DNA from: a virus
Reading direction: 5' to 3' (one strand)
Length of the DNA stretch: 33,560 nt
IMG/VR virus record: IMGVR_UViG_3300045988_020463
Span: 1-33,560 of that record
Shown here piece after piece: positions 6,282 to 23,146 of the stretch. The notes under the pieces are model-generated. The model was not told the origin of the DNA. It ran no database searches and saw only the letters and a program-made list of their open reading frames with translations. Made by a program: the position numbers and the translations under genes. The stretch's first letter is position 1, and every line of letters starts with the position of its first letter.

Positions 6282-6287
6282 TTAGGA

Positions 6288-6319
6288 AATGGAGGGCTGT
6301 TAACAGTTCTCCATTTTTT
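6288..6319 (+). terminator. Rho-independent terminator ending the late block
   Basis: aatggag...ctccatt stem with an inner ctgttaacag palindrome, followed by tttttt. Confidence 0.8.
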
Positions 6320-6335
6320 GTTAACATTCTTTAGA

Positions 6336-6555
6336 CACAGCCTGCACAGTAGAAAAGTGGGTCTGTGCAGGTCTCTGTGCAGTCTAACTCCTTATATTAT
6401 AATACATTATATGTAAATGCACAGTAAACACAGTAAAAAGGGGGTAAAACATTATCCTGGAGAATATACCATTTACCACTATAGAACGAGCTGTAGAAAC
6501 CACTATATTCTATATTAAAGTTTAGAAAAAAGGGTGTGTTTCTGTGCAGTGCAGG
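6336..6555 (+). repeat. Duplicated intergenic element, copy A (partner 23147..23358)
   Basis: By eye, the two flanking blocks are about 85-90% identical to copy B and surround a diverged centre of about 45 bp. Contents: hairpin CCTGCACAG-N13-CTGTGCAGG (6341..6371); further CTGTGCAG at 6375 and 6542; TGCACAG at 6418; AT palindrome TATTATAATA at 6395..6404. Confidence 0.9.
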
Positions 6556-6646
6556 ATAAAACACTGATAAATAGCACTTTAGCCCTCACACACTGTTTCT
6601 TTACATCTTTTCACTTTTCATTAAGGTTTATTAGCACAAAAAGAGA

Positions 6647-6676
6647 TACAACCTATTGATATTTGCCGTATATTTG
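6647..6676 (+). promoter_or_regulatory. Early promoter (TACAAC-N16-TATATTTG; lacks the GTTAAC box)
   Basis: TATATTTG at 6669..6676 fits the Bacteroidota -7 consensus TAnnTTTG. The stretch caacctattgatatttgccgtatatttgcaatgtcaaaaggaaa is nearly identical to 16585..16625. Confidence 0.65.
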
Positions 6677-6805
6677 CAATGTCAAAAGGAAACAAGGGTT
6701 TCCCGGAAGGCATGAGGTCACCGAGACATTAAATCGGAAATAACCGTGAACAAGTAAGAACGTAGATTTGTTATCATTGTATTAGCGTATAAAACGAAGC
6801 GAAGT

Positions 6806-7030
6806 ATGAAAGCAGTTGATTTAATTTTCAGAGAAACGCTGACCGAGGGTCAGTTCGAAATGAAGAGCCACGTATTAGTATTTATAGACGAGGCAGGCAA
6901 CGAGTATAGCGATACCTTTTCAGAGGTACGCCATAACGGGAGATTTGAGGCATACCAATACAACGGTATGAACTACGAGTACATGCAGAACCTTTTGGAA
7001 GCTATTTTCTTAAATAAGGTTAACAAGTGA
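6806..7030 (+). CDS. Hypothetical early protein
   Basis: 74-aa ORF, the first gene of the early block. Confidence 0.6.
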   Translation: MKAVDLIFRETLTEGQFEMKSHVLVFIDEAGNEYSDTFSEVRHNGRFEAYQYNGMNYEYMQNLLEAIFLNKVNK

Positions 7031-7060
7031 ACCAACGTATTTGCAAAAGCGTTATATTTG
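7019..7060 (+). promoter_or_regulatory. Early promoter, GTTAAC class
   Basis: GTTAAC-aagtga-ACCAAC-N16-TATATTTG. GTTAAC starts exactly 34 nt before the TA of the -7 box. Confidence 0.7.
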
Positions 7061-7086
7061 CACCAACAATTTAAAAAGATAAAGTT

Positions 7087-7362
7087 ATGAAAGGGCAAAA
7101 GTTTATTATCGACGAAGTGAAAAAACATTTGCAGTCGAGCGCGAGGAAGAACAAATACCAAGTTATCGACGCGGTGCAGGAAATGCCGACGTTCGAAGGG
7201 TTTATACTCCCTTACTACGTATCTACAATGGAAGGAACACAATACCCCGTGAACGTTGAAGAAATGTATATCTACTGCGACGAGTGGGACGAGTTCTATA
7301 ATGAGACAGTGGCAAAGGTTGCACAAGCCATTTTGGAAGCCGAACAAATCAAAGAAGCATAA
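7087..7362 (+). CDS. Hypothetical early protein
   Basis: 91-aa ORF downstream of the promoter, with leader caatttaaaaagataaagttATG. Confidence 0.65.
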   Translation: MKGQKFIIDEVKKHLQSSARKNKYQVIDAVQEMPTFEGFILPYYVSTMEGTQYPVNVEEMYIYCDEWDEFYNETVAKVAQAILEAEQIKEA

Positions 7363-7394
7363 ATTAGTTATTCACCATATAAAAAGAAAAGAAA

Positions 7395-8018
7395 ATGAAG
7401 ATTACACCATTAACAATCGATTTTGACGTTACAAGCGCGCAAGAAGTGGAATTTGTAAATGACCTTATGAACCGTCTATTTGGAAGCGCACCGCTTAAGG
7501 CTATGGCATCGTCTACAGAGAACCCAGTAAACAGTACAAGCGTACCGACGTTTAGCGAACCGACGTTTAGCGAACCGACGCAGACCGCCGCACCCGTTCA
7601 AGAAGTGAAGGAAGAACCAAAGAAGGAAACGATTATAGAGGAAACAATAGCAGACGCTATCGCAGAGGTTAAAAAGGAAATCGGAAAACCCGAGAAGCCA
7701 AAGGCTGCAAATGTAGCAAAGCCGAAGACTGCAAATGTAGCAAAGCCGAAGGCCGTAAAAGAAGCCCCACAAGCGACGATTGAACCCGAACCCGTACAAG
7801 CTCCCGCCAAAGAGGAGAAAGTCCCAGAGAAAGCCCCAAACGAGCCTCTAACGGCAAAGGACATGCAGGCGTTCATGATTGATTTAATGAAAACCGGGAA
7901 AATCACCCGTCCGCAATTAACGGACATCATGTTGGAGTTCGGCGGCGCGTCTCTTATGCGTATCAAGCCCGAGAAGTACGAGCTATTAAAACAACGTATT
8001 GAAACCTATAACGATTAA
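7395..8018 (+). CDS. Hypothetical protein with a Pro/Lys/Glu-rich repetitive linker
   Basis: 207 aa. Peptide repeats PTFSE x2 and (A/T)ANVAKPK x2 are encoded by DNA tandem repeats at 7545..7580 (15-bp unit) and 7705..7751 (24-bp unit). Small globular N- and C-terminal domains. Confidence 0.7.
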   Translation: MKITPLTIDFDVTSAQEVEFVNDLMNRLFGSAPLKAMASSTENPVNSTSVPTFSEPTFSEPTQTAAPVQEVKEEPKKETIIEETIADAIAEVKKEIGKPEKPKAANVAKPKTANVAKPKAVKEAPQATIEPEPVQAPAKEEKVPEKAPNEPLTAKDMQAFMIDLMKTGKITRPQLTDIMLEFGGASLMRIKPEKYELLKQRIETYND

Positions 8019-8023
8019 AAATA

Positions 8024-9202
8024 ATGAAAGAACAAATAGACCACACAAGTAGGGCACACGCCCTACTTTCTCCGAGCAGCTCGCACCGCTGGCTTAACTG
8101 CACACCTTCCGCGCGGTTGGAAGAACCATACGAAAGCACAAGCAGCGCGGCAGCGGACGAAGGGACAGTAGCGCACGAGTTGGCAGAGCACGCAATAGAA
8201 AAGTATTTAGCCGGGGAATACCTACCGTTATTGGACGAATTGCCCGTACCCGATGAGATACGCAATAACAAGTACTATAGCTCAGAGATGGAACACTACG
8301 TAACGGATTACGTTTGCTATGTGTGTGATATATACGAACTGGAGGAAGGCGCTAAAATGAGTATAGAACGAAAGTTCGACCTAACGACATACGTTCCCGA
8401 GTGTTTCGGTAGCTGTGACTGCGACATAGTAGGCGAGACTGTTCTAAACATCATAGACCTAAAATATGGTAAGGGCGTACAAGTGGACGCTAACGGGAAT
8501 AGCCAGTTAATGATGTACGCTATAGGGGTGCTTAACTCCCTGGAACCGCACCACCGCTCGAAGATTGAAAAAGTACGTATGCACATCGCACAAGTACGGT
8601 TAGGCAATTACTCGGTATTTGAGATGTCCGCACGGGACTTGACCCATTGGGCGATACACGTACTACGCCCCACGGCTGAAAAGGCATGGGCTGGGCAAGG
8701 GGAAACCAAAGTAGGAAGCCATTGTAAGTTCTGTAAGTTCAAGGCACAGTGCCGGGCACAGAAAGATGCTTTAGTTAACGAGTTCGAGACCTACGGGGAC
8801 ACAAAGGCGTTAACGCTCGATGAGATAGGCGATATATTAAGCAAGTCCGATATGTTCACGGATTGGCTGGCATCCGTAAAGACATTCGCAATGCAAGCCG
8901 CTACACGGGGCGAAAAGGTCAAGGGGTGGAAGCTTGTAGAGGGTAGGTCAGCACGTGTCATAAACGACACAGAAACAGCCATAGAGCGCCTAAAGGCTAT
9001 CGGGTTATCTACCGAGGACATAACTAACCGCAAACTGAAAGGTATTGGAGACCTTGAACGCCTGGTTGGTAAAAAACCGCTCGCCGCAACTCTTGATGGT
9101 CTGATAGTCAAGCCGCAAGGACTGCCGACATTAGCCCCGGAAAGTGATAAGAGGGAAGAATTAAGCCCTACTATTGATGACTTCGAGGAATTAAATTCAT
9201 AA
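8024..9202 (+). CDS. PD-(D/E)XK nuclease, DUF2800/Cas4-like with a 4-Cys cluster
   Basis: N-terminal LLSPSSSHRWLNCTPS; core IIDLKYGKGVQVDANGNSQLMMYA (D-x-K nuclease motif); C-terminal HCKFCKFKAQC. Together these give the Cys arrangement of Cas4/AddB-type Fe-S nucleases. Confidence 0.85.
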   Translation: MKEQIDHTSRAHALLSPSSSHRWLNCTPSARLEEPYESTSSAAADEGTVAHELAEHAIEKYLAGEYLPLLDELPVPDEIRNNKYYSSEMEHYVTDYVCYVCDIYELEEGAKMSIERKFDLTTYVPECFGSCDCDIVGETVLNIIDLKYGKGVQVDANGNSQLMMYAIGVLNSLEPHHRSKIEKVRMHIAQVRLGNYSVFEMSARDLTHWAIHVLRPTAEKAWAGQGETKVGSHCKFCKFKAQCRAQKDALVNEFETYGDTKALTLDEIGDILSKSDMFTDWLASVKTFAMQAATRGEKVKGWKLVEGRSARVINDTETAIERLKAIGLSTEDITNRKLKGIGDLERLVGKKPLAATLDGLIVKPQGLPTLAPESDKREELSPTIDDFEELNS

Positions 9203-9207
9203 AAGAT

Positions 9208-9249
9208 GTTAACGAAAGAACCAACCTATCAGATAAAGCGTTATATTTG
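9208..9249 (+). promoter_or_regulatory. Early promoter, GTTAAC class
   Basis: GTTAAC-gaaaga-ACCAAC-N16-TATATTTG. Confidence 0.7.
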
Positions 9250-9275
9250 CATTATCAATTTAAAAACAAAACGAT

Positions 9276-9605
9276 ATGAAAAGTAACAACGGTATTTTAA
9301 CAGAGAAAGAGATTCAAGAAAGAACCAAGTTTTGGAACAAAAAACAGTTCCGCACATGGAGCAAGAAAGAACTTGAAAGAACCTCTACAGACATGCAAAA
9401 ACTTTTAGCAGCCCTAAAGGAATTCAGTATGGACGAGATTGAATCTATTAGAAATTCAGACGTGTATAGATTTAGGGCATACGTGGGTGGCTTTAGGGCA
9501 TACGGAAAGAACGACCCGAAGTGTATCGTACGTATGGCAGCCCAAAAGGATATAGACTACGCTATTTCGATAGCACCAAAAACTTTTAAAGTTAAACAAG
9601 GTTAA
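9276..9605 (+). CDS. Hypothetical protein
   Basis: 109-aa ORF with leader caatttaaaaacaaaacgatATG. Confidence 0.65.
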   Translation: MKSNNGILTEKEIQERTKFWNKKQFRTWSKKELERTSTDMQKLLAALKEFSMDEIESIRNSDVYRFRAYVGGFRAYGKNDPKCIVRMAAQKDIDYAISIAPKTFKVKQG

Positions 9606-9642
9606 CAGAATAAACAACTTATTGATTTATTTGTTATCTTTG
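9601..9642 (+). promoter_or_regulatory. Early promoter, GTTAAC class
   Basis: GTTAAC-agaata-AACAAC-N16-TATCTTTG. Confidence 0.65.
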
Positions 9643-9708
9643 CAACATCAAATTAAAAACGGAACGCCCGAACCGATTAGAGGGCAAAAACAATAAAACA
9701 AGTTTATT

Positions 9709-10248
9709 ATGAAAGCAATGATTAAGAACGTGAGATTGAGTTATGTCAGATTGTTTGAAGCGCAACAAGTCAACGGACAAGGAGAAGCAAGTTACAGCGT
9801 ATGTTTATTGATTCCGAAGGATAGCCCGGAAGTCCCAAAGATTAAGGCAGCTATCGAGCAAGAATTTAAGGGACTGAAAGCCCGTTACCCGAAGTTGAAC
9901 GGCAAAGACCCAAAGGTATGGACTAACCCGTTAAGAGACGGGGACGAAGAAAAAGACGGGGCGGAGTATCAAGGTTGCTACTTTATCAACGCAAAGCGTA
10001 AAGAGAAGCAAGGAGCGCCTATCGTAATCGACGGTAGAAAACAGTACATCACAGACCAGAACGAGGTTTATAGCGGTTCTTGGGGCAACGTAGCCGTATC
10101 ATTCTACCCCTATGAGTTTACTGGGAAGTACGGTATCGGCGTAGGCTTGAACGGTGTGCAGAAGGTAAGAGACGATGAAAGACTGGACGGCGGTACAAGC
10201 CTTGATGATTTCGACTTTGAGGACGAGAACGACGACCTTTTCAACTAA
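9709..10248 (+). CDS. Single-stranded DNA-binding protein, DUF2815 type
   Basis: N-terminal VRLSYVRLFEAQ...YSVCLLIPKD matches the DUF2815 pattern. The acidic C-terminal tail DDFDFEDENDDLFN is typical of SSB partner-recruitment tails. Confidence 0.8.
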   Translation: MKAMIKNVRLSYVRLFEAQQVNGQGEASYSVCLLIPKDSPEVPKIKAAIEQEFKGLKARYPKLNGKDPKVWTNPLRDGDEEKDGAEYQGCYFINAKRKEKQGAPIVIDGRKQYITDQNEVYSGSWGNVAVSFYPYEFTGKYGIGVGLNGVQKVRDDERLDGGTSLDDFDFEDENDDLFN

Positions 10249-10274
10249 CAATTCACTTAAACAGATTAATAACC

Positions 10275-10294
10275 GGGCGGTGTAACAGCCGCCC
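10275..10294 (+). other. GC-rich hairpin after the SSB gene (no U-tract)
   Basis: gggcgg-tgtaacag-ccgccc followed by an A-run, not a T-run. Terminator function is uncertain. Confidence 0.35.
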
Positions 10295-10311
10295 AAAAAT
10301 AAAAAGCAAAA

Positions 10312-11412
10312 GTGGGAAAATACGGTTCATACGTAAACGCAGAAGGTGTTAGAATTTCAAAGGCAACGGGCAAACCGTTGAAGAAGTATAATAAGGTCAA
10401 CAAGGCATATTGGGCAGCCCGTGAGGGCAAAACAGTTGTGGGAGTACAGCAACCTACAGTAGAGGTAGACCCGGTAATAGCAAAATTGCAGAGCCTCTAT
10501 ACAGAGGAGGAGATAAAAGGTATTATCGGTTTGAAGGAAGACAAGGGCACGTTTGAACTCATCAACATTGTAGAAAAAACAAAGTCAAGCATAGATGACG
10601 GAAATACGGGCATACTGATTGCTTCGGACTTCCACATAGAGGAGACCGTAAAAGCATCAACCGTTTTAGGTCTGAATGAGTTCAACATAGATATTGCAGA
10701 GAAGCGCGTTAAGAACTATTTCGCGAACGCTATATACATGGTTAAAAAGCATTCTATAAATAATTTGGTGGTTGGTTTGCTGGGAGATTTCATAGGTGGC
10801 TATATTCACGACGAACTGGCGCAAACAAACAGCCAGACCCCAATGCAAGGAATATCCACTATTAAATCATGGCTCATTTCCGGGCTAAAAGCGATGCACG
10901 ACCAATTGCCCAACATTGAAAAGTTTGTTGTTGTCGGTATATGCGGAAATCATGCAAGAACTACGAAGCGCATGCAGTTTGCGAACGGCTTTGCGATGAA
11001 TTTTGAGTATTTTTTATACAAGGATATAGAGCAAGCCTTAACTTTAATGGGTCTAACAAAGTTTGAGTTCATCATTCCCGAAAGTGAATTTGCGTACCTG
11101 GATATATACGGTAGGAAAATTCTTATGTGCCACGGACACCAGGTTAAGAGTGCGGGAGGCGTAGGCGGTTTATTCCCACCGATGCTAAGATGGTTCGGAA
11201 AATTAAACCAGACGATTAAAGTAGATAAGGTTTTCCTAGGTCACTTCCACCAGTCCATATATACTAAAGAGTTTTGTGTGAACGGCTCTGTAAAAGGCTA
11301 CGACGCGTACGCATGCGGCATGGGGCTGGCATACGAAGAACCTAAACAGGCGTTTGTAGTCCTCAACAAGAAGCGCGGATTTATCACGTACACAAATATT
11401 TTTGTAGATTGA
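10312..11412 (+). CDS. Calcineurin-like metallophosphoesterase (Mre11/SbcD-like fold)
   Basis: All five phosphoesterase motifs appear in order: SDFH, GDFIGG, GNHAR, CHGH, GHFH. The only available start is GTG at 10312, behind the A-rich leader aaaaataaaaagcaaaa. Confidence 0.8.
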   Translation: MGKYGSYVNAEGVRISKATGKPLKKYNKVNKAYWAAREGKTVVGVQQPTVEVDPVIAKLQSLYTEEEIKGIIGLKEDKGTFELINIVEKTKSSIDDGNTGILIASDFHIEETVKASTVLGLNEFNIDIAEKRVKNYFANAIYMVKKHSINNLVVGLLGDFIGGYIHDELAQTNSQTPMQGISTIKSWLISGLKAMHDQLPNIEKFVVVGICGNHARTTKRMQFANGFAMNFEYFLYKDIEQALTLMGLTKFEFIIPESEFAYLDIYGRKILMCHGHQVKSAGGVGGLFPPMLRWFGKLNQTIKVDKVFLGHFHQSIYTKEFCVNGSVKGYDAYACGMGLAYEEPKQAFVVLNKKRGFITYTNIFVD

Positions 11413-11413
11413 T

Positions 11414-11911
11414 ATGCTGACTTTTGAAAGAGCAAATGAACTTTTCCGCTATGACCCAATTAGCGGAAAAGTTTTTAGGAAAGTAACAACATCGTCAAGG
11501 TCTATTAAGGGCACAGAGGCAGGGTCACTCGATAAGAGAGAACGTTATTTGCGTGTCACAGTTGACGGGGTGGGTTATCAATTACACCGGGTGATAATGC
11601 TTCTCGTACACGGACACCTCGACAAGAGCGTACATGTAGACCATATATCGCACGATAGGGCCGATAATAGGCTGTGTAATTTACGGCTGGTTAGCCTTTC
11701 CGAGAACAACAAAAATAAATCTATGGATAGGCGCAACAGCACGGGGGTAACTGGGGTTAGATTCAACAAAAAATATAATACATGGGGCGCGCATATCGGG
11801 GTAAGTGGAACCGAAATACATTTAGGTTCATTTAAGACCCTGGAAGAAGCCGCCGCCGCCCGTGCTGAAGCTGAAATAAAATATGGATTTCATCCTAACC
11901 ACGGTTTATAA
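11414..11911 (+). mobile_element. HNH homing endonuclease with C-terminal AP2 DNA-binding domain
   Basis: HNH_3 motif VDHISHDRADNRLCNLRLVSLSENNKN. AP2-like GVTGVRFNKKYNTWGAHIGVSGTEIHLGSFKTLEEAAAAR. Free-standing, with its own strong terminator. Confidence 0.85.
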
Positions 11912-11921
11912 ATGGTCTAAG

Positions 11922-11962
11922 GGCTACTAATTGTTAAATAAATGCAATTAGTAGCCTTTTTT
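11922..11962 (+). terminator. Rho-independent terminator after the HNH gene
   Basis: Perfect 12-bp stem ggctactaattg/caattagtagcc followed by tttttt. Confidence 0.85.
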
Positions 11963-12029
11963 CTTGTTTATTAAAAACATTGTTGTACCTTCGCCGTTAT
12001 AATAGTAATAACAATTAAAACAAGTGATT

Positions 12030-14048
12030 ATGCGAAATTTATTTATTGACTTCGAAACATTTAGTACTACGGACATTAAAAGCGCCGGTAACTATAAATA
12101 CTGTGAGGACGAGAATTTCGAGATTCTTCTTTGCGGTTACATGTGGGACACCGACACGGACGTTACAATTATCGACTTAACGAAGCCCGAAGGACTGGAC
12201 GAGTTTAACGAGTTGTTTACATATGTACAGAACAACGAGGAAGTTGTAATAGTAGCACACAACGCTACGTTTGAACGTATCTGTTTGCGTGAATATGGGT
12301 TTGACATCAGCCCTATGCGCTTTTTCTGTACGGCAAATATGTCGTTATATTGTGGTATGCCCGCATCACTGGAGGCGGTATCCAATATTCTAAACCTTGA
12401 CGACAAGAAGAAGGGCACGGGCAAAAACCTTATCCGTTATTTTTCTATCCCGTGCAAGCCTACCAAAACAAACGGAGGGCGCACACGTAATTTACCGGAA
12501 CACGCCCCCGAGGACTGGGAAGAGTTCATCGATTACCTACGTTATGATGTGCTTTCAGAAAAGGAGATATTCGGTAAGCTGTCCCGGTTTGAGTTCCCGG
12601 AAGAAGAACAACGCATCTATGCAGCAGACCAGCGTATAAACGATTACGGTATATTGGCAGACCTCGAGCTGGCACACGCCGCGCAGGATATGGACGAAGA
12701 ATATAAAGCACGCCTTACCGAGAAAGCCGAAAAGGAATTCGGGTTGAGTTCTCTAAAGTCCATGCCGCAGTTAAAGAGCTTCATTAAAGAGCGTACGGGC
12801 GTGGTTATCGATTCCCTCAATAAGAATAGTATTGAAGAGGTGATAAAGACCGTAGCGAGCCTTAAAAACGTTACTGACGAGGATAAGCAAGCGGTGTTAG
12901 ACGTTATAGACCTACGTAGGGAGATAGGTAAAACGTCGAATGCCAAGTACACCGCCATGCTTGCAAGCGCCGGACGGGGCAACCGTATTAGAGGACTATT
13001 CCGTTACTATGGTGCGAGCCGTACCGGGCGATGGGCCGGGCGCTTGGTCCAGCTGCAAAACCTACCGCAAAACCATATCGAAGACCTGGACGGGGCGCGA
13101 GACTTGGCAAAGATGCACGACCTGGATATGATGGAATTAATATATGACAAGCCTACGCATATACTATCGCAGCTTATACGTACCGCGTTCATCGCCCCCG
13201 AGGGGTACACGTTCTCCGTGGCCGACTTCTCGGCTATTGAAGCCAGGGTAATTGCTTGGGTTGCCAACGAGCAATGGCGTTTAGACTTATTTAACGACCC
13301 GAAGGCAGATATTTATTGTGCCTCTGCCTCTAAAATGTTCGGCGTACCGGTACACAAGGGGGACGATTTAAGGCAGCGCGGAAAGGTTGCGGAGCTTGCA
13401 TTAGGATATGGTGGCGGCGTTAACGCGCTTACCACAATGGATATTAAAAAAGAGTTAAAAGACGAAGAGAAACCTCAAATTTTGTCAAAATGGAGAGAAG
13501 CTAATAAAAAAGTAGTATCTTTGTGGCGTTCGTTAGAAGATTGTGCAAAACGATGTATTGGAACGAGACGCGAACAAGTTTATAGGATAAACGATGTTTC
13601 GAGTATTATATTCCGATACGAGAGCGGCGCAATGACTATCGAAATACCGAGCGGTAGAAAGCTATTCTACCCGTCTGCAAGAATGGGAAAACGCACTATC
13701 GAAGGCGTTAACGGCTCGTTTGAGGTTGAGGATATCTCCTATATGGGCCAAGACCAAACCTCCGGGAAATGGGTCAAACTAAACACCTACGGAGGCAAGC
13801 TAACAGAGAACGTCGTGCAAGCAATAGCCCGTGACTTGCTGGCAAATGCGATTTTCAAGGTTTTTGATTTAGGCTTTAATATCGTGTTGCATGTTCACGA
13901 TGAGATAGCCGCCGAGATACCAAAAGACGGAAACGAAGAAAAGACGCTGCAAATAATGAGTGATGCCATGTGCAACGCCCCGAGTTGGGCAAAGGGCATA
14001 CCATTAAGAGCAGCAGGTTATATTACTGATTATTACAAAAAAGATTAA
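12030..14048 (+). CDS. Family A DNA polymerase with 3'-5' exonuclease domain
   Basis: Exo motifs FIDFETFS, HNATFE and YLRYDV. Polymerase motif A is DFSAIEARV, motif B is RQRGKVAELALGYGGG, and motif C is VHDEI. ATG 12030 is preferred over the track GTG at 12024. Confidence 0.92.
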   Translation: MRNLFIDFETFSTTDIKSAGNYKYCEDENFEILLCGYMWDTDTDVTIIDLTKPEGLDEFNELFTYVQNNEEVVIVAHNATFERICLREYGFDISPMRFFCTANMSLYCGMPASLEAVSNILNLDDKKKGTGKNLIRYFSIPCKPTKTNGGRTRNLPEHAPEDWEEFIDYLRYDVLSEKEIFGKLSRFEFPEEEQRIYAADQRINDYGILADLELAHAAQDMDEEYKARLTEKAEKEFGLSSLKSMPQLKSFIKERTGVVIDSLNKNSIEEVIKTVASLKNVTDEDKQAVLDVIDLRREIGKTSNAKYTAMLASAGRGNRIRGLFRYYGASRTGRWAGRLVQLQNLPQNHIEDLDGARDLAKMHDLDMMELIYDKPTHILSQLIRTAFIAPEGYTFSVADFSAIEARVIAWVANEQWRLDLFNDPKADIYCASASKMFGVPVHKGDDLRQRGKVAELALGYGGGVNALTTMDIKKELKDEEKPQILSKWREANKKVVSLWRSLEDCAKRCIGTRREQVYRINDVSSIIFRYESGAMTIEIPSGRKLFYPSARMGKRTIEGVNGSFEVEDISYMGQDQTSGKWVKLNTYGGKLTENVVQAIARDLLANAIFKVFDLGFNIVLHVHDEIAAEIPKDGNEEKTLQIMSDAMCNAPSWAKGIPLRAAGYITDYYKKD

Positions 14049-14051
14049 ATT

Positions 14052-16490
14052 ATGGAATTGAGAAAAATGGTTTTTAAAATTGCTACGGCGAGCAGCGCAA
14101 AGTCTACTTCATGGAAAAACCGCTCCTACTCATGGGACGAGTTAACCGAGAAGCTGACAAAGGCAACCGTTACGGACGAGACGTACCGGGAGTTTATGAG
14201 CGCGAGCAAAGTCGAGCAGGGTAATATTAAAGACGTAGGCGCATTCATGGGCGGCGAGTTGTTCGGTAGCCGTAGAAACAAAAACAATGTCGGTGAGCGC
14301 TCTATATTGGCGCTTGATATTGACTACGGAGAAAAGAACTTCCCCGAGGCGTTCTACTCGGTTATTAATTGCGCATGTATCATTCACGGTACGCACAAGC
14401 ATAACCCGAAAGCAAATACGCTCCGTTACCGTGCCATCATCCCGTTGTCCGAACCAGTGGACGGGGAGCAATACGAAGCTATCGCCCGAAAGGTTGCAGA
14501 ATTAACGGGCATCGACTTGTACGACCGCACCACCTTTCAACCCGAGCGCTGCATGTTCTTCCCGTCGGTTTCCAAAGACGTAGAGTATGAGTTTATAGAT
14601 TACTCAGCGTTTAACGAAAGCCCTTTGGACGTGCAGAAGTATTTGGGCATGTACGACGATTGGAGCGATACGACCGAATGGGCATACCACAAGGACGAGA
14701 AGGGCGAAGCCCGGACACTCGCCAAGGAACAACAAGACCCAACACTAAAAGAGGGTAACGTAGGCGACTTCTGTAGAGCATACACGATTAGCGAGGTTAT
14801 CGCGGAATACCTACCGGACGTGTACGAACCGACCGACCAGGAAGACAGATGGACGTATACGGGCGGTTCCACATCGGGCGGCATGCTTACCTTTGATGAT
14901 ATGTTTGCCTACTCGTTCCATAACAACGACCCGATACAAGGCAACCATGTGTTCAACGCCTACGACCTTGTGCGTGTACACAAGTTCGGTAAGCTGGATA
15001 AGGGCGCGGATAGGAAGAACTCCACCGAGGCTATGAACGAATTGGTAAACAAGGACGCGAAGGTAGCCGCGGCACGTGCCCGAATGCTTGCGGTTAAGGC
15101 TGGAGAAATCATGGATGATTTCGACGATGTTATAGAAGTAGAGGAAGTGACGGACAGCGACGTAGCGACTACCTACGAGGACGCAATGGCGAAACTGGAA
15201 ACGGACAAGCGCGGAGCTTACCTACCGTCTGCAAAGAACTTAGGGCTGATAATGAAGTACGACCCGAATTTAAAGGGGCTTATTGCACGAGACCTATTTA
15301 AAGAACGACGGGTTGTTACACGCATACCTCCTTGGCGCGCAAAGGATAGTTCTTTGGACTTCCAAGACGTGGACTATTCGGGCGTACGTAAACACATTGA
15401 AGACGTGTACGGCATATCGAATAGTGCGAAGATTGACGATGCTATAGCGCTATCCGCCGAGATGAACTCATTCCACCCGGTGCAGGAATACCTAACAAAA
15501 TTAAAGTGGGACGGTATCGAAAGAGTCGATAAGGCTTTAATTCACATCATGGGCGCCGAGGATAACATATACACCCGTGAGGCATTCCGCATCATGATGG
15601 TGGGGGCGGTTAAGCGTATCTTTCAAAAGGGCTGCAAGTTCGACAGTATGTTAGTGCTCCAGTCCGAGCAGGGCGCCGGAAAGAGCACATTTATTCGGAT
15701 GCTTGGCAAACATTGGTTCTCCGATAGTCTTTCGAGCATGGACGGAAAAAGCGCGTTTGAACAATTGCAGGGTAACTGGATATTGGAGGTAGCCGAGTTG
15801 TCGGCAATGAGACGTTCAGAGGTTGAAGGCGTGAAAAACTTCATTTCTAAAACCGAGGACAGCTTTAGACCGGCATACGGGCGCGTTACTAAGAACTTCC
15901 CCCGGCAATGTATCTTTATAGGTACGACCAACCGGGACGAATTTCTAAAGGACGATACGGGCGGCAGACGCTTTTTGCCCGTGAAGGTCAAGGCGAACGC
16001 CAATACGCACCTTATCTTTGAGAAGGGTTTCGACGATTACGTAGACCAGCTTTGGGCGGAAGCCGTACAAATGTATTTCCGAAAAGCGAGTACGTTGTTA
16101 TCCCATGAAGCCGAGGAAATCGCCGAGAAAGGACGCGAAGAGCATTACGAAGCCGACCCCCGTACCGCATCAGTAGAAGCGTATTTGGATATGCTCGTAC
16201 CGGCAGATTGGCGGCGTATGTATGTGAACGAAAGGCGCATGTACTTTAGGGAGTACGATGCATCGAAGGTAGACCCGGAAGACTTTACACTGGAAAAGAT
16301 GGACTTCGTGTCTATTATGCAAATCGCTACGGACGTGTTCGAGATGGAAGTAGGGCGCGTAACAACCAAGGAAAGCCGCGAAATAGCCGCCATCATGTCT
16401 AAAGTACAAGGGTGGCAGCGCGCGGCGAATGGAAAAACCGTCGCAGGTATCGGACGCACGCGAGGGTTTGAGCGTATTGTTAACGAGTGA
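14052..16490 (+). CDS. Bifunctional primase-polymerase (AEP) / VirE-type P-loop helicase
   Basis: N-terminal AEP-like LALDIDY and HGTHKH...RYRAIIPL. Central Walker A SEQGAGKST and Walker B-like ILEVAEL, in the VirE/D5-like arrangement. 812 aa. Confidence 0.85.
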   Translation: MELRKMVFKIATASSAKSTSWKNRSYSWDELTEKLTKATVTDETYREFMSASKVEQGNIKDVGAFMGGELFGSRRNKNNVGERSILALDIDYGEKNFPEAFYSVINCACIIHGTHKHNPKANTLRYRAIIPLSEPVDGEQYEAIARKVAELTGIDLYDRTTFQPERCMFFPSVSKDVEYEFIDYSAFNESPLDVQKYLGMYDDWSDTTEWAYHKDEKGEARTLAKEQQDPTLKEGNVGDFCRAYTISEVIAEYLPDVYEPTDQEDRWTYTGGSTSGGMLTFDDMFAYSFHNNDPIQGNHVFNAYDLVRVHKFGKLDKGADRKNSTEAMNELVNKDAKVAAARARMLAVKAGEIMDDFDDVIEVEEVTDSDVATTYEDAMAKLETDKRGAYLPSAKNLGLIMKYDPNLKGLIARDLFKERRVVTRIPPWRAKDSSLDFQDVDYSGVRKHIEDVYGISNSAKIDDAIALSAEMNSFHPVQEYLTKLKWDGIERVDKALIHIMGAEDNIYTREAFRIMMVGAVKRIFQKGCKFDSMLVLQSEQGAGKSTFIRMLGKHWFSDSLSSMDGKSAFEQLQGNWILEVAELSAMRRSEVEGVKNFISKTEDSFRPAYGRVTKNFPRQCIFIGTTNRDEFLKDDTGGRRFLPVKVKANANTHLIFEKGFDDYVDQLWAEAVQMYFRKASTLLSHEAEEIAEKGREEHYEADPRTASVEAYLDMLVPADWRRMYVNERRMYFREYDASKVDPEDFTLEKMDFVSIMQIATDVFEMEVGRVTTKESREIAAIMSKVQGWQRAANGKTVAGIGRTRGFERIVNE

Positions 16491-16497
16491 TAACAGA

Positions 16498-16515
16498 GGG
16501 GGCGTAAAAGCCCCC
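16498..16515 (+). other. Hairpin after the primase gene (no U-tract)
   Basis: gggggc-gtaaaa-gccccc. No T-run follows. Confidence 0.35.
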
Positions 16516-16570
16516 AAATGTTAACTAACTGTTAACAGAATAACTAAATGAGGTTTATTTCTTAAATGGT

Positions 16571-16612
16571 GTTAACGGAATATACAACCTATCGTTATTT
16601 GCCGTATATTTG
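16571..16612 (+). promoter_or_regulatory. Early promoter, GTTAAC class
   Basis: GTTAAC-ggaata-TACAAC-N16-TATATTTG. Two further GTTAAC boxes lie upstream at 16520 and 16531. Confidence 0.7.
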
Positions 16613-16654
16613 TAATGTCAAAAGGAAATAATAACAATTTAAAAACAAAAGATT

Positions 16655-16795
16655 ATGACTAAGTATTACGTAAATGGAAAGCAAATTTCAAAGCAAGAAG
16701 CTAACGAGATTAAAAAAGAAAATGCAAGATTGCAAAAGAGTACAGACCTTAACGACTGGTTGGGCATTCAATGGATTACAGAGATAAACAAATAA
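16655..16795 (+). CDS. Small hypothetical protein (46 aa, below the ORF-track cutoff)
   Basis: MTKYYVNGKQISKQEANEIKKENARLQKSTDLNDWLGIQWITEINK. Preceded by a 27-nt leader identical to that of the next gene (16631..16657 equals 16851..16877). Confidence 0.6.
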   Translation: MTKYYVNGKQISKQEANEIKKENARLQKSTDLNDWLGIQWITEINK

Positions 16796-16874
16796 AAGTT
16801 AATAGGGCAATAACGGTGAACCTTCCTAAAGCTTCCGTTGTTCTTATAGTATAACAATTTAAAAACAAAAGATT

Positions 16875-17336
16875 ATGAAAAAGTTAGCAAATATTTTAGT
16901 AGTGGGTCTGACGGCGCTTATGTTCGCCTCATGTTCGGCAGGTGACGGTTCGTCGGTTCTATCAATAGAGGACACACCCGAAACAGTAGATAATACAAAG
17001 GTATTCATGTTTAAGGATGTAGCCACACACGAGAAGGTTTCCGGGGCTTATGCGGTGAAGATTAAGACTGTGAAAGGCATCAAGTATTGCGCGCTCCTCG
17101 GGGCTGGTAACGAAGCGTTCTTCCCGATGGACGAAAAATCAGGCCTACCGAGACCCATGTATGAAACGTATGCCACCAACATACCGATGCGCGAGGGCGT
17201 AGATATAGTTTGGGTTGTTATATCGGTAAATATTGTTTTCCTGGTGGAACAATACAAGGATAATTATCAGGGGGATTACCTTCACGGGGACGACATTTTG
17301 CATTGCACAGAAATAGAAATAATTAACAAATTTTAA
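16875..17336 (+). CDS. Putative lipoprotein
   Basis: MKKLANILVVGLTALMFASCSAGDG: signal peptide with a lipobox-like FASC. Exact consensus leader. Confidence 0.7.
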   Translation: MKKLANILVVGLTALMFASCSAGDGSSVLSIEDTPETVDNTKVFMFKDVATHEKVSGAYAVKIKTVKGIKYCALLGAGNEAFFPMDEKSGLPRPMYETYATNIPMREGVDIVWVVISVNIVFLVEQYKDNYQGDYLHGDDILHCTEIEIINKF

Positions 17337-17348
17337 AAAGAAAAGATT

Positions 17349-17759
17349 ATGAAAAAGTTAGTAGTATTAGCAGTGTTAATTCTTACAAGTGTATCAATGT
17401 TTAGCCAAATCACGTCACAAGGCAAGCCCAATGTATTGAAGTCCTTCCGTATGGGCATTTGCAAATTGGTTGATACCAATGGGGAAATAACCATCGAGGC
17501 ATTGACGCGAGAGACCCAAAGGTATACAATGATAGTCCATTTAGGTACACCCGAGGAAGCGGCGGTAACGCTTGCGAGCCTTGCAGAATACAAACCCAGT
17601 AAGGGTGAGACGGTGAACCTAAACAACCCGAGCAACAACGAGGCGTATTATCAGAATCTTGGCGGCACATGGGTAATCACGGAGAAGTTAACGAAGATTT
17701 TCAGTATTTCCGTAAGCCGTGGAGAGCTTAGGAAAATGGTCAAAGCGTTGGAAAATTAA
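17349..17759 (+). CDS. Putative secreted protein
   Basis: MKKLVVLAVLILTSVSMFSQ is a Sec-type signal peptide. Consensus-like leader aaaaagaaaagattATG. Confidence 0.7.
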   Translation: MKKLVVLAVLILTSVSMFSQITSQGKPNVLKSFRMGICKLVDTNGEITIEALTRETQRYTMIVHLGTPEEAAVTLASLAEYKPSKGETVNLNNPSNNEAYYQNLGGTWVITEKLTKIFSISVSRGELRKMVKALEN

Positions 17760-17798
17760 AGAAGTGTTTTTGTATATACAATTTAAAAAGAAAAGATT

Positions 17799-18002
17799 AT
17801 GAAAAGTGGAAACTTTATCGAACTGACGTTCGTAGTTAAGGGTGAATTGCAAGTGGAGTATATCAACGTTGAACACGTATCTCGTATCATGTACGTAGAT
17901 GGCAAACCATTTATCGGTATGCTGGGGCAGACCTACACGCGCCAACTAACGGAAACAGGCATGCAAGAACTAACGGAGTGTATTAACTTAGAAAACAATT
18001 AA
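17799..18002 (+). CDS. Hypothetical protein
   Basis: 67-aa ORF with leader caatttaaaaagaaaagattATG. Confidence 0.6.
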   Translation: MKSGNFIELTFVVKGELQVEYINVEHVSRIMYVDGKPFIGMLGQTYTRQLTETGMQELTECINLENN

Positions 18003-18008
18003 ATTAAA

Positions 18009-18170
18009 ATGGTTACTATCTTAAAAGTTATCGCCGTAAACGAAGGGGAACGTACCTCCTATTATCCTACCCCGGGCGATGGGGTGTTTCCAACCGTGGA
18101 GATGGCACGGGAGTTTTATAAAAATGAGTTCAAAACAAATAAAATAATATTGTGTTATGTCAACAAGTGA
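18009..18170 (+). CDS. Small hypothetical protein (53 aa, below the ORF-track cutoff)
   Basis: Hand translation gives MVTILKVIAVNEGERTSYYPTPGDGVFPTVEMAREFYKNEFKTNKIILCYVNK. It fills the gap between neighbouring genes and overlaps the next start by 14 nt. Confidence 0.45.
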   Translation: MVTILKVIAVNEGERTSYYPTPGDGVFPTVEMAREFYKNEFKTNKIILCYVNK

Positions 18171-18915
18171 AAAAGTACAGAGTTACAACGTAGGCAAGTC
18201 CGATTATGCAAAGCATGCTATCCAGCCGTGGCAAATTTGGAAAGAGTATAACCTCAACCCGTGGGACGCTGATATAGTGAAACGCGTTCTCCGAACCAAG
18301 GAGGGCGAACCCCGAACATTGGATTATGAAAAGATTATCCATATATGCAAATATCGCATTGCGGAACTCTCTAAGGAAGCTTTAAAGGAGAACAAGGTAG
18401 TTACACCAGCAGAGGCGGAAAAGCCCGTAGAGGACGAGGAAAGCGACGATACAACGGTATTTTGCTTGGACGAGACAATGAATCCGGCAATGTTCTATAC
18501 GGAGGGCAAGAAGTGGAACGGTAAGTATGTCGGTTACTCGGTGTTCATGACTGGTAACGAACCCTATATGTATCTGGGCGTCGACGCAGAGGGCAACCAC
18601 TTGTATGCAGACCTTTCGGAGTTCGGACAACGGCTTTACACCCAGGAAGCGCACTTGCCGCCAAAAACGTTCGAACTAAATTGTACCAACCTTTTTGGCA
18701 ACCACAGAAGCTCGTTAAAGATAGGGTTCGAAGGTAAGAACTACAAGAAGCACGATTATATCGTAACGGCCAAGGGGCATTTGCTCCGCTACTTCGGTAT
18801 GGAAGGGAACAAGTATTTGTACCGTAATATGTCGACAAAGCGCGCGGATGGAACGTACCCCGAATTCTTAAGTAGTGTTAAATTAGAAAACAAAGCAATT
18901 CAATTCACGCTATGA
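18157..18915 (+). CDS. DUF3310 (SaV-like) domain protein with an extended C-terminal region
   Basis: The N-terminus YNVGKSDYAKHAIQPWQIWKEYNLNPWDADIVKRVLRTK fits the DUF3310 pattern (hY....ie..d.i....l....gNaiKY..R). The C-terminal 150 aa are unassigned. Confidence 0.7.
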   Translation: MSTSEKVQSYNVGKSDYAKHAIQPWQIWKEYNLNPWDADIVKRVLRTKEGEPRTLDYEKIIHICKYRIAELSKEALKENKVVTPAEAEKPVEDEESDDTTVFCLDETMNPAMFYTEGKKWNGKYVGYSVFMTGNEPYMYLGVDAEGNHLYADLSEFGQRLYTQEAHLPPKTFELNCTNLFGNHRSSLKIGFEGKNYKKHDYIVTAKGHLLRYFGMEGNKYLYRNMSTKRADGTYPEFLSSVKLENKAIQFTL

Positions 18916-19097
18916 TAAGCAGACAAGAATACGCGTACGGTATCGGAGACGAGATAATACATAACGGAGAGGTTTTAAAGTATAGGGGCTATTATAACGG
19001 GCACCTCTACACAACTACAGTAGACCACGATGCCGGGGAATTCGCCGAGACAGTGGTATTTGAAAACAAATTGAGAAATGAAGGAAATAATAAGTGA
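18912..19097 (+). CDS. Hypothetical protein
   Basis: 61-aa ORF with ATGA start/stop overlap with the upstream gene. Confidence 0.55.
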   Translation: MISRQEYAYGIGDEIIHNGEVLKYRGYYNGHLYTTTVDHDAGEFAETVVFENKLRNEGNNK

Positions 19098-19416
19098 AAA
19101 AGATTTGGAGCGTACATTCTCCGAAAAGCTTAACCGAACAAAAAAGGTGTGGGTAATAAAACTATTATCCACATTTATAAAAGGTTTGCCGGATAGAATG
19201 ATACTTTGCCGGGGTGGGTATGTAGGCTTTGCCGAGATAAAGACCACGGGTAAGAAACCAACTAAGATACAATTACTTATACATAGCAAGTTAGAGGCTT
19301 TAGGTTTCAAAGTATTTGTTATCGACGATTTGGAAAGCAGGGACGCAGCGATAAGTTTCTTCTTAAGAAATGTTAAGGAAATAAACAACGTACCGGGAAA
19401 AGGGTTATCTTTGTAG
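19078..19416 (+). CDS. VRR-NUC domain nuclease
   Basis: GLPDRMILCRGGYVGFAEIKTTGKKPTKIQ matches the VRR-NUC catalytic core (PD...E.K...Q). Confidence 0.8.
   Translation: MKEIISEKDLERTFSEKLNRTKKVWVIKLLSTFIKGLPDRMILCRGGYVGFAEIKTTGKKPTKIQLLIHSKLEALGFKVFVIDDLESRDAAISFFLRNVKEINNVPGKGLSL
19372..19413 (+). promoter_or_regulatory. Early promoter, GTTAAC class (variant GTTAAG), embedded in the VRR-NUC 3' end
   Basis: GTTAAG-gaaata-AACAAC-N16-TATCTTTG, with the same 34-nt and 16-nt spacings as the other members. Confidence 0.6.
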
Positions 19417-19439
19417 TATCGAATTAAAAAACAGAAATC

Positions 19440-19682
19440 ATGAAAAAGAGAAGTTTAAAAGAAGAAATCGAATACCGTTTAGGTATGTACTTTGGTATTA
19501 AGTCGGGCGCGCTGTATGTCCGTGACGATAAGTTCGGTAACACCGAGGAAATTCTAAACCAGTTGCAACGCGATATTACCCGGGACGTTAATTTCCTATC
19601 GCGTAAAACGCTGGGTTACGTATCGGATGAGCAGGACTTCAAAAGCATTTGTGTGTTTTATAAAACAAAATTAATGAAGTAA
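19440..19682 (+). CDS. Hypothetical protein
   Basis: 80-aa ORF with leader gaattaaaaaacagaaatcATG. Confidence 0.65.
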   Translation: MKKRSLKEEIEYRLGMYFGIKSGALYVRDDKFGNTEEILNQLQRDITRDVNFLSRKTLGYVSDEQDFKSICVFYKTKLMK

Positions 19683-19689
19683 TAAAGCT

Positions 19690-19866
19690 ATGGTAAACTA
19701 TATAGATTTAAAATTAAAATGTATCGCGGGATACACCGAGATAGTATTAAACGGTCAGCGCATTAAGTGCGCTGCCGATTATGACCGCGTATTAGGGCAT
19801 ATAACCCCGGCAGCTCTCCATGAGTTCAGCTCACAGTTATTAATGATAAAAGCAATGTTATGTTAG
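19690..19866 (+). CDS. Small hypothetical protein (58 aa, below the ORF-track cutoff)
   Basis: Hand translation gives MVNYIDLKLKCIAGYTEIVLNGQRIKCAADYDRVLGHITPAALHEFSSQLLMIKAMLC. It fills the gap before the SNF2 gene and overlaps its start by 7 nt. Confidence 0.45.
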   Translation: MVNYIDLKLKCIAGYTEIVLNGQRIKCAADYDRVLGHITPAALHEFSSQLLMIKAMLC

Positions 19867-21248: not shown

Positions 21249-21394
21249 AAAAGTTAATAGCGGTTATTGCAGTCCTACTTTTATTGGTAGGCTGCACCGC
21301 AGTACAGAACGCCACGGACAGCATGCAACGCAATTTCAAGCTACAGCAATTAGAGTACGGGCTATCGCTTAAGGATAGTTTAATACTTAAATGA
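21245..21394 (+). CDS. Small lipoprotein (49 aa)
   Basis: ATGA overlap with the SNF2 stop. MKKLIAVIAVLLLLVGCTAV has a textbook lipobox, LVGC. The track ORF 21050..21394 extends upstream only as an out-of-frame overlap with SNF2. Confidence 0.65.
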   Translation: MKKLIAVIAVLLLLVGCTAVQNATDSMQRNFKLQQLEYGLSLKDSLILK

Positions 21395-21395
21395 T

Positions 21396-21437
21396 GTTAA
21401 CGAAAGAACCAACATAACGGGAAAAGCGTTATATTTG
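21396..21437 (+). promoter_or_regulatory. Early promoter, GTTAAC class
   Basis: GTTAAC-gaaaga-ACCAAC-N16-TATATTTG. Confidence 0.7.
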
Positions 21438-21463
21438 TATCAACGATTTAAAAACAGAAGATT

Positions 21464-21727
21464 ATGGAAAAGTATTCAGGAGCAGTTAGGGAGATGTATT
21501 CACAGTTTAAACAGAGAGAAGTCCACCCGATGGAAAAGTACATAGGACGATTCGTTAGACATCGGGGCGGAATTTTGGAAGTAGTAGGGTACTCCGTAAG
21601 GCCTGACGGCTCGTTCTGTCTGATAGTAGGTTGTGCGCGTGCATGGTATTATCCGAACGCAGAAGACGTAGTATTTAAAAGGTGCGAGGCCTATTGCTAC
21701 GCCAGTGTTAATGATTTAATAGATTAG
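21464..21727 (+). CDS. Hypothetical protein (shares a YxGRxV...VVGY motif with the next ORF)
   Basis: 87-aa ORF with leader gatttaaaaacagaagattATG. Confidence 0.65.
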   Translation: MEKYSGAVREMYSQFKQREVHPMEKYIGRFVRHRGGILEVVGYSVRPDGSFCLIVGCARAWYYPNAEDVVFKRCEAYCYASVNDLID

Positions 21728-21732
21728 AAATT

Positions 21733-22155: not shown

Positions 22156-22166
22156 GAGGAAAATGT

Positions 22167-22280
22167 ATGGAGGCGATAATGTGTTTATTCGGAATCGCGA
22201 TAGGCGCCGGTTTGGTAACTGGTTTGTGGCTCGTAGCTAAGTTCGCAGCCCGTAATATAGACGGGGAGTACGACGAGTAA
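22167..22280 (+). CDS. Small single-pass membrane protein (37 aa, below the ORF-track cutoff)
   Basis: Hand translation gives MEAIMCLFGIAIGAGLVTGLWLVAKFAARNIDGEYDE: one hydrophobic helix plus a charged tail. The start could instead be the internal ATG at codon 5. Confidence 0.45.
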   Translation: MEAIMCLFGIAIGAGLVTGLWLVAKFAARNIDGEYDE

Positions 22281-22316
22281 CGGAATGGAGTGTTTAACTA
22301 AAACAAGGATAAGAAA

Positions 22317-22986: not shown

Positions 22987-22998
22987 TGTAAGCACCCC

Positions 22999-23044: not shown

Positions 23045-23063
23045 AAGTCGAGTGATAGCGATT

Positions 23064-23106: not shown

Positions 23107-23146
23107 ATATTCAGAAAAAAGGGCCTCTAAATTTAACATATTTTAT

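Follow-up and report, generated by a model that had tools for sequence, protein, structure and literature searches.

The virus record IMGVR_UViG_3300045988_020463 of IMG/VR, analysed here over a window of 33,560 nt (the whole stretch of DNA), carries a noncoding element of about 215 bp in two copies, and our results suggest that each copy is probably an iteron-type replication origin like those served by the Rep initiators of Staphylococcus aureus pathogenicity islands (SaPIs), i.e., the predicted loading site for the phage's own primase-helicase. The genome is a circle of 33,461 bp, since bases 1-99 of the window are a repeat of 33462-33560. A first-pass annotation made from the sequence alone had described two direct copies, at 6336-6555 and 23147-23358, and both were confirmed by repeat search and pairwise alignment; the limits held as claimed, except that each copy starts 1-2 nt earlier if a degenerate first box is counted. 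By BLAST, copies A and B were 79.5% identical across ~229 nt, and alignment upheld the two-block build ascribed to them, with a 5' block of ~125 bp at 87-92% identity, a 3' block of ~48 bp at 94%, and a diverged centre with a 10-nt indel. The spacings given for the circle, 16,811 and 16,650 bp, were also correct. The element had been called the only large noncoding duplication of the genome; it is the largest, but not the sole one, as the promoter-region families D1, D5, and D6 (the last 50 nt at 92%) are also present. It had further been said to hold no open reading frame (ORF) and no TAnnTTTG box. A scan for the canonical box found none in either copy on either strand, while a mechanical 55-aa minus-strand ORF (6397-6564) does overlap copy A but was judged not to be a gene because of the 10-nt indel and the divergence in the centre.

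6334 to 6555: copy A, proposed origin A, located 3' of the late-block terminator and 5' of the first early promoter.
23146 to 23358: copy B, proposed origin B, located 3' of the early-block terminator and 5' of the late-block promoter and terS.

Each copy is built of eight to nine short boxes in both orientations, which read CTGTGCAG when forward and CTGCACAG when reverse on the plus strand. The genome contains seven exact CTGTGCAG sites against 0.48 expected, and since all seven lie within the two copies, the boxes are not due to chance. No other iteron cluster was found in the genome, and positions 16491-16874 held no boxes either. The boxes are ordered as two reverse, two forward, an AT-rich 35 bp, two reverse, ~105 bp at ~70% AT, and finally two or three forward. 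In copy A, the parts are as follows.

6334 to 6340, reverse: box 0, degenerate (GACACAG).
6342 to 6349, minus strand: box 1, CTGCACAG on the plus strand, forming an inverted repeat with box 2.
6363 to 6370 and 6375 to 6382, plus strand: boxes 2 and 3, each CTGTGCAG, with a 12-nt period.
6383 to 6417: AT-rich spacer, TCTAACTCC TTATATTATAATACATTATATGTAAA, strongly conserved; a candidate DNA-unwinding element.
6418 to 6433, minus strand: boxes 4 and 5, TGCACAG and AAACACAG, in tandem.
6440 to 6464: core, GGGGGTAAAACATTATCCTGGAGAA, nearly invariant.
6465 to 6501: centre, variable, differing between A and B and containing the 10-nt indel.
3' of the centre, within 6465 to 6533: conserved 3' block, ACTATATTCTATATTAAAGTTTAGAAAAAAGGG.
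6534 to 6555, plus strand: boxes 6', 6, and 7, GTGTGTTT, with CTGTGCAG at 6542-6549 and GTGCAGG.

Copy B follows the plan of copy A, except that a reverse half-box, CCTGCA, stands in place of box 7.

23146 to 23152, 23153 to 23160, 23174 to 23181, and 23186 to 23193: boxes 0-3.
23194 to 23228: AT-rich stretch.
23229 to 23243: boxes 4 and 5.
23250 to 23274: core.
23334 to 23341: box 6'.
23342 to 23349: box 6.
23353 to 23358: half-box CCTGCA.

The protein proposed to read these boxes is the 812-aa primase-helicase of the phage, in which three features were of importance.

14052 to 16490, plus strand: primase-helicase, proposed box-binding initiator (812 aa), with an N-terminal primase, a VapE-like SF3 helicase at aa 481-699, and a C-terminal domain (CTD).
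16125 to 16487, plus strand: the CTD, aa 692-812, a homologue of the winged-helix-bearing CTD of SaPI1 Rep.
16422 to 16445, plus strand: hypervariable patch, aa 791-798 (AANGKTVA), whose residues co-vary with box type.

The VapE-like domain was recognised by Pfam (E 4.6e-80), aa 7-438 matched a phage primase family in PHROGs, and aa 392-731 matched PDB 7PDS by phmmer (E 7.6e-80; 34% identity), which is the complex of SaPI1 Rep1 with DNA (PMC9371898). When an AlphaFold model of aa 392-812 (predicted local distance difference test score, pLDDT, 93) was compared to 7PDS with Foldseek, the template modelling (TM) score was 0.82 over 431 columns, the CTD included. An AF2 model of the CTD alone (pLDDT 91) aligned to the Rep1 CTD with TM scores of 0.72-0.76 and root-mean-square deviations of 2.6-3.7 Å, and its next Foldseek matches were weak ones to winged-helix DNA-binding domains. 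By these models, the structural homology of the primase-helicase to the SaPI1 Rep initiator helicase extends over the full length, and since the N-terminus of the phage protein matches primases, this protein is a fused Pri-Rep, as is found in SaPI5 (PMC9371898). Residues 791-794 were modelled as the turn of a beta-hairpin following helix 772-784, i.e., at the wing position of a winged helix. Because a homologue search with the CTD alone returned near-identical fragments only, the usable alignment was built from a search with aa 392-812.

In close relatives, the sequence of the boxes changes as a whole set, and some genomes are mosaics of types. The box types and the corresponding residues of the hypervariable patch are listed here.

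Type I: boxes TGCACAG / CTGTGCA; patch AANGKTV[AMT]G in most.
Type II: boxes TGACCAG / CTGGTCA; patch AAGRRAVMG, and SAGRKAVTG on a different CTD background.
Type III: boxes GACACAG / CTGTGTC; patch AANARPVVG, AANARVVMG, or AANAKPIMG.
Type V: boxes TACACAG / CTGTGTA; patch SADAKSVMG, AAEARPVLG, or SAEAKAVMG.

In 20 of 22 genomes, copies A and B agreed in type (permutation p = 1e-4), as would be expected if both have to be read by a single trans-acting protein. Identity over whole proteins showed no relation to box type, since the genomes are mosaic, and the primase-helicase was 94-97% identical across types. In a first per-column scan (45 proteins), the primase-helicase was the only protein with several residues diagnostic of type II, four of the five lying within its last 60. 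For an enlarged set, 47 loci were fetched round the primase-helicase gene, and 2,407 variable columns from 26 proteins in 51 contigs were scored against box type by permutation z-scores, as raw mutual information was inflated by one hypervariable 87-aa protein. Results showed that the top six columns (478, 756, 794, 793, 796, and 789; z 11.5-15) all belonged to the primase-helicase, as did 12 of the top 14, and that four of the six were in or beside the hypervariable beta-hairpin tip of the CTD. Three of the other proteins had weaker, isolated columns that tracked box type, but among the 26 proteins a cluster occurred in the primase-helicase only. None of the 25 top-scoring columns fell in the four genes that adjoin the elements; since these neighbours have no top columns and the primase-helicase gene is 6.6-10 kb away, linkage does not explain the association. 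Residue 793 was N, K, or R in type I, G in type II, N in type III, and D or E in type V. Type II was found on two CTD backgrounds, and types III and V each occurred with three patch variants. The first gene after copy A (6806-7030) was considered as the box binder and rejected, as it had no family match and no column in the best 25.

Conservation of the element in related phages was borne out by BLAST and in IMG/VR, both copies being present in relatives. The window, a Bacteroides uniformis siphophage genome, is 88-90% identical to isolated siphophages of this host such as EMB1/2, BU183P1, and BU730P1, and all 13 related isolates had both copies (two matching places each). A scan of IMG/VR with the core returned 52 stretches in ~35 contigs, and the copies were present in all loci that had been fetched round the primase-helicase gene and span the positions. 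Altogether, the pair was seen in ~45 viral-metagenome contigs. Orthologous copies (A-A, B-B) were 84-91% identical as compared to 75-81% for paralogous ones, and therefore the duplication is an old one, with both copies kept since. In all 18 complete or near-complete genomes checked, with initiator identity down to ~43%, the element was present exactly twice, at a spacing of about half the circle, and the full anatomy of the element was kept in both copies across all relatives examined. Four distant phages showed no detectable nucleotide similarity to the element, yet at the same two positions all of them carry a pair of related noncoding elements, filled with a different short repeat in each phage. 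Identities to the primase-helicase and the repeats are given below.

Contig 054587 (L105): 56% identity to the C-terminal 199 aa; repeat TTGTCACA; spacing 16,571 of 33,689 bp.
Phocaeicola phage BD26P3 (L108): 58%, aa 392-812; repeat CGGAACA, including three tandem copies at an 11-nt period.
BK735P1 (L109): 45%, aa 392-812; repeat ATCTTTC.
Bacteroides thetaiotaomicron phage BT34 (L110): 43%, aa 392-812; repeat TCTATCC, with 14 of 23 genome matches in the two gaps.

A motif related to the core GGGGGTAAAACATTATCCTGGAGAA, AAAGGGGGTATAATGGAGGATATAG, was present in BD26P3. In L105 (540-575 and 17110-17145) and L108 (~17380-17420), a short hairpin lies at the centre of the element and its arms differ compensatorily between copies (in L105, ATTGTAAT...ATTACAAT versus ATATTGCTAT...ATAGCAATAT), which may point to a conserved structure within the core of the origin, distinct from the iterons. 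We also observed that at least six of ~38 metagenomic contigs begin or end inside the element, at most ~100 nt from the core, where random linearisation predicts ~0.5 (loci L010, L022, L025, L027, L030, L047, and L058; contigs 021801, 021627, 020131, 025843, 036651, and 010661), and the isolate record PQ571282.1 likewise begins or ends in the element (bases 1-203). The likely cause is that assemblies break at a two-copy repeat, although some of these sites may be physical DNA ends.

In the literature searched, only genome announcements were found for these phages and no origin was described. The first-pass annotation had recognised no described system in the element; however, its anatomy matches that of SaPI Rep and ori (PMC9371898), and two origins with a single initiator are known in SPP1 (PMC6316719). 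SaPI Reps are self-loading initiator helicases in which the winged helix of the CTD reads iterons of 5-6 nt, and the SaPI ori consists of 6-12 iterons round a central AT-rich region, with at least two per side in opposite directions (PMC9371898). The phage initiator is homologous to these proteins (PDB 7PDS and 7OLA; PMC9371898), having a VapE-like SF3 helicase, a winged-helix CTD, and a primase fused to them as in SaPI5, and the eight to nine boxes of each phage copy fall within the SaPI range of 6-12. The SaPI layout is seen in boxes 2 and 3 (forward), the AT-rich 6383-6417, and boxes 4 and 5 (reverse), and it also fits boxes 4 and 5 (reverse), the ~70% AT centre, and boxes 6', 6, and 7 (forward). 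In SaPIs, iteron specificity resides in the Rep CTD, and its phage counterpart would be the co-variation at CTD residues 756, 789, 793, 794, and 796, plus 478. The two systems also differ: the phage boxes are 7-8 nt rather than 5-6 nt, the phage element is larger (~215 bp) and, unlike the SaPI ori, has conserved non-iteron blocks, and the phage is a virulent-type Bacteroides siphophage with its own PolA, SSB (a protein binding single-stranded DNA), and nuclease module, whereas a SaPI is a satellite island in a Firmicute.

Considering the SaPI-type anatomy, the conservation of both copies, the homology to Rep (CTD included), and the co-variation of boxes with the hairpin, we propose that the C-terminal winged-helix domain would recognise boxes of 7-8 bp (CTGTGCAG in this phage), which in opposite orientations would flank AT-rich DNA. 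Hexamers may then assemble at the boxes and melt the AT-rich DNA, and replication would start with the phage PolA, SSB, and nuclease. There would be two such sites, one per terminator-promoter gap and about half a circle apart. Binding of the boxes by the CTD, loading of hexamers with melting, and the start of replication are thus predicted from sequence and models.

A precedent for two copies is found in SPP1, where oriL and oriR are two copies of an origin served by one initiator, gp38, and where oriR-bound gp38 has been proposed to stall the fork and set off the change to concatemeric replication (PMC6316719, PMC3485210). SPP1 is also a siphophage with all genes on one strand and two similarly organised origin-like sequences (repeats with an AT-rich unwinding element), one situated in the early region and the other in the late, between transcription signals. 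Both SPP1 copies are bound by one initiator, and the concordance of A and B boxes (20 of 22) would be the counterpart in our phage. However, gp38 is unrelated to the phage initiator and acts alongside a DnaB-type helicase and a separate loader, oriL is inside gene 38, and the SPP1 copies are ~13 kb apart on 44 kb and not about half a circle. Furthermore, the functional split of SPP1 (start at oriL, stalling at oriR) is experimental, whereas the phage copies are known from sequence. In satellite phage P4, the primase-helicase alpha binds the origin through a winged-helix domain at its C-terminus, and the octamer iterons form two separate clusters, ori and crr; the latter, 4.5 kb away from ori, serves as an auxiliary element in cis and not as a full second origin copy. 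Our phage likewise has a primase-helicase and iterons in two clusters, and the origin-binding domain of P4 alpha was not among the best 50 Foldseek PDB matches for the CTD. As to why there are two copies, the possibilities include two firing origins, one origin with an auxiliary site or fork barrier, and a coupling of the switches in replication and transcription. A more far-reaching proposal, namely that gut Bacteroidales siphophages of a large family depend on the two copies as a conserved, obligate replication architecture and not just as redundancy, one Rep-type primase-helicase loading at both terminator-promoter junctions, with initiation, or fork arrest at the second copy, mechanically coupled to the early-late and theta-concatemer switches and with the hairpin-tip residues acting as a recognition code that defines replication-specificity groups among co-infecting phages, is in our judgment unlikely. 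The near-half-circle spacing may be a simple consequence of two near-equal gene blocks, since the copies fill the only two terminator-promoter gaps.

Several observations weigh against paired origins of this type. The evidence for them is drawn from sequence, structure prediction, and co-variation. The long non-iteron blocks (the 25-nt core and the 3' block) are not accounted for by the origin model, and the inverted boxes allow stable plus-strand hairpins (z -4.1 and -4.9), G.U-compatible changes included, so that a structured nucleic-acid component in the element is possible. The SaPI ori is single and directly downstream of rep, whereas the phage copies start 7.7 kb upstream and 6.6 kb downstream of the initiator gene; because of this difference in position, we refer to the element as a variant of the SaPI-type origin and not a plain member. 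GC and AT skew were monotonic and gave no origin signal either way, but since all genes are co-oriented, skew is uninformative here. The relation of box to patch is not one-to-one, as some type I genomes carry SAKARPIMG or SARQIAVMG. Lastly, the sample behind the co-variation is modest and partly phylogenetically dependent, with 15 non-type-I contigs (four of type II, three of type III, and eight of type V).

The first-pass annotation had listed four options for the element and chosen none; a pair of replication origins is the option that our results support, while a noncoding RNA, a regulatory hub, and a cointegration remnant are disfavoured. Since co-variation shows recognition and not initiation, the CTD of the primase-helicase might bind the boxes for autoregulation, insulation of the blocks, coupling of late transcription to replication, or as a fork barrier or pairing site, with the origin located elsewhere. 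Such a role is suggested by the position of both copies exactly at terminator-promoter junctions, 114-125 nt before the first -7 box, and by the proposal that the second origin copy of SPP1 is a fork barrier and not a start site. However, the genome has no other iteron cluster, AT-rich DNA between opposed iterons is the layout of a SaPI origin, and both copies keep the full anatomy in all relatives, and thus we regard this explanation as quite unlikely. The boxes could instead be operator or enhancer sites for a dedicated small DNA-binding regulator, with the element as the hub of an early/late switch, considering that it lies upstream of the first promoter of each block, that inverted repeats are typical of dimeric regulators, and that several small early proteins are without known function. 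The association scans (45 and 26 proteins) flagged no other protein comparably, though, and neither did the adjoining genes (6806-7030, 22591-22986, and 23625-24317) have a column in the top 25. As no helix-turn-helix family was found in the small early proteins scanned, and as one operator set acting alike on the early and late blocks is hard to square with a temporal switch, a regulator of this kind appears very unlikely.

Inverted boxes might also be the signature of a structured RNA on the plus strand, either an antitermination or processing element heading each block or a small RNA gene, in which box 2 or 3 would be the partner of box 1, and boxes 4-5 would pair with 6'-6, closing a domain of ~105 nt. 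The elements nutL/nutR of lambda and putL/putR of HK022 are likewise present in two copies per genome, at operon heads, as phage-type-specific hairpin inverted repeats; they are located downstream of promoters and act as RNA. Indeed, RNAalifold predicted a hairpin of boxes 1 and 3 and a long-range stem of boxes 4-5 with 6'-6, in which 91-97% of cells were paired and 9-11 pairs had double changes, all measures beating shuffles. Many of the changes were G.U-compatible on the plus strand only, and minimum free energy z scores were -4.1 and -4.9 on the plus strand versus -2.6 on the minus strand. In a pairing control, however, reverse boxes paired about equally well with all forward boxes (86-94% Watson-Crick, excepting the degenerate boxes 0 and 6'; e.g., 94% for boxes 1 and 2, 93% for boxes 1 and 6, and 89% for boxes 4 and 2). 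Since any reverse box pairs with any forward box, the apparent covariation probably reflects one shared motif and not specific helices. Furthermore, the boxes of relatives are mostly direct or tandem repeats, which cannot pair, and intramolecular pairing leaves unexplained why A and B share a type and why the protein hairpin tracks it. In contrast to the nut and put sites, the phage element is behind a terminator and upstream of a promoter, consists of direct repeats in relatives, and has a replication helicase as its specificity partner. A scan that covered canonical Bacteroides promoters only found no TAnnTTTG in the element or just upstream of it, where a terminator lies at 17-41 nt, although some read-through past the terminator may occur. 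An Rfam scan of the whole window (E <= 1) returned no match. The agreement between A and B, the tandem direct repeats in distant relatives, and the terminator-promoter position fit a trans-acting protein better than intramolecular pairing, and a structured RNA therefore seems highly improbable to us. The idea that the copies are a neutral duplication or a relic of cointegration or recombination, without function now, has next to no chance of being correct: direct repeats that split the circle into near-equal halves could come from the fusion of two replicons, but orthologous copies are closer than paralogous ones, both having been kept since an old duplication, and both occur in 13 of 13 isolates, in all spanning contigs, and, with iterons that differ wholly, in relatives whose protein identity is 43-58%. 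In addition, the boxes co-evolve in both copies.

The gene order surrounding the proposed origins was read from the annotation of related isolates together with Pfam and PHROGs. All plausible genes of the window are on the plus strand, and the order round the circle is copy B, late block, terminator, copy A, early block, terminator, and copy B again.

Late block: terS (23625), terL, tail genes, capsid (108-1052), portal, and lysis genes, ending at 6281.
6287 to 6319, plus strand: intrinsic terminator of the late (structural and lysis) block, with hairpin 6287-6316 (AAATGGAG...CTCCATTT) and a T-run to 6319; read by eye.
6669 to 6676, plus strand: TATATTTG, the first canonical Bacteroides -7 box 3' of copy A, within repeat family D6.
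6806 to 22986: early block, with a DUF2800 nuclease, an Enc34-type SSB, PolA (12024), the primase-helicase (14052-16490), and an SNF2 helicase.
23064 to 23105, plus strand: intrinsic terminator of the early (replication) block, with a 14-bp stem (23064-23099) and a T-run; found by scan.
23483 to 23490, plus strand: TACCTTTG, the first canonical -7 box 3' of copy B.

As had been claimed, a terminator precedes each copy, 17 nt (A) and 41 nt (B) upstream; the A-side terminator was absent from the terminator scan because its loop exceeds 8 nt. Likewise, the promoter-box positions 6669 and 23483 agree with the placement of each copy upstream of the next block, the distance from the element to the next canonical plus-strand box being 114 and 125 nt for the two copies. 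The terminator-promoter gaps that hold the copies appear to be untranscribed. A scan for sigma-70-type promoters round both copies gave no more matches than in shuffles, this model not being relevant to Bacteroides. The early block contains families of canonical Bacteroides promoter repeats at 6646-6695, 7046-7106, 9235-9295, 9612-9661, 16582-16631, 17758-17818, 19399-19459, and 21423-21483, in which TTTG ... TAnnTTTG precedes an A-rich leader and ATG. In the late block, canonical promoter boxes are essentially limited to one, at the head (23483), and this distribution suggests many early transcription units as opposed to one long late operon.

Other features of the window were noted as well. 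Between the promoter box downstream of copy B and terS lies a 17-nt tandem array (TAGTCCAACTACTGGAA; 23504-23622) of ~6-7 copies. Among 16 relatives checked, only L103 had an array at this position, with 16.5 copies of a different 17-nt unit (GTCCGAATACCGGGATA). The array was rejected as a part of the element, being missing in 14 of 16 relatives; it is a sporadic, fast-evolving feature, perhaps a site related to pac or some other array for protein binding. A 33-nt tandem duplication (TGTAAGCACCCCCGAAGGACGTGTCGAACTAAG; 22987-23052; 76% identical) separates the last early gene from the early-block terminator. At 11414-11911, between a Metallophos-like nuclease and PolA, there is a protein with HNH_3 and AP2 domains, likely a homing endonuclease, whose homologue is 94% identical in a few relatives, occurs as a version of 46-57% identity in others, and is absent in some (e.g., EMB1). 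An 87-aa ORF (21464-21727) is extremely variable, with tblastn identities of 32-63% in most contigs from relatives that are otherwise 90-97% identical, and many of its columns show 8-11 different residues. A diversity-generating retroelement is an unlikely source of this variation, as no reverse transcriptase is evident in the genome, and the ORF could serve in host interaction or anti-defence, with diversifying selection acting on it.

The hosts of these siphophages are abundant in the human gut, namely Bacteroides, Phocaeicola, and probably Parabacteroides (phages of the last being outside the element check), and the phage genomes are annotated almost wholly as "hypothetical protein"; our proposal names candidate origin sites and a matching initiator for them. 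The matched initiator-iteron types I, II, III, and V, together with the unrelated iterons of distant phages, would constitute a natural experiment on how a winged-helix hairpin reads DNA, and the specificity types predict which phages can cross-replicate or interfere with one another. An origin with its cognate primase-helicase is also a candidate minimal replicon for Bacteroides vectors and phage engineering. Lastly, the two conserved copies in 18 genomes make dual origins in small phage genomes directly testable.

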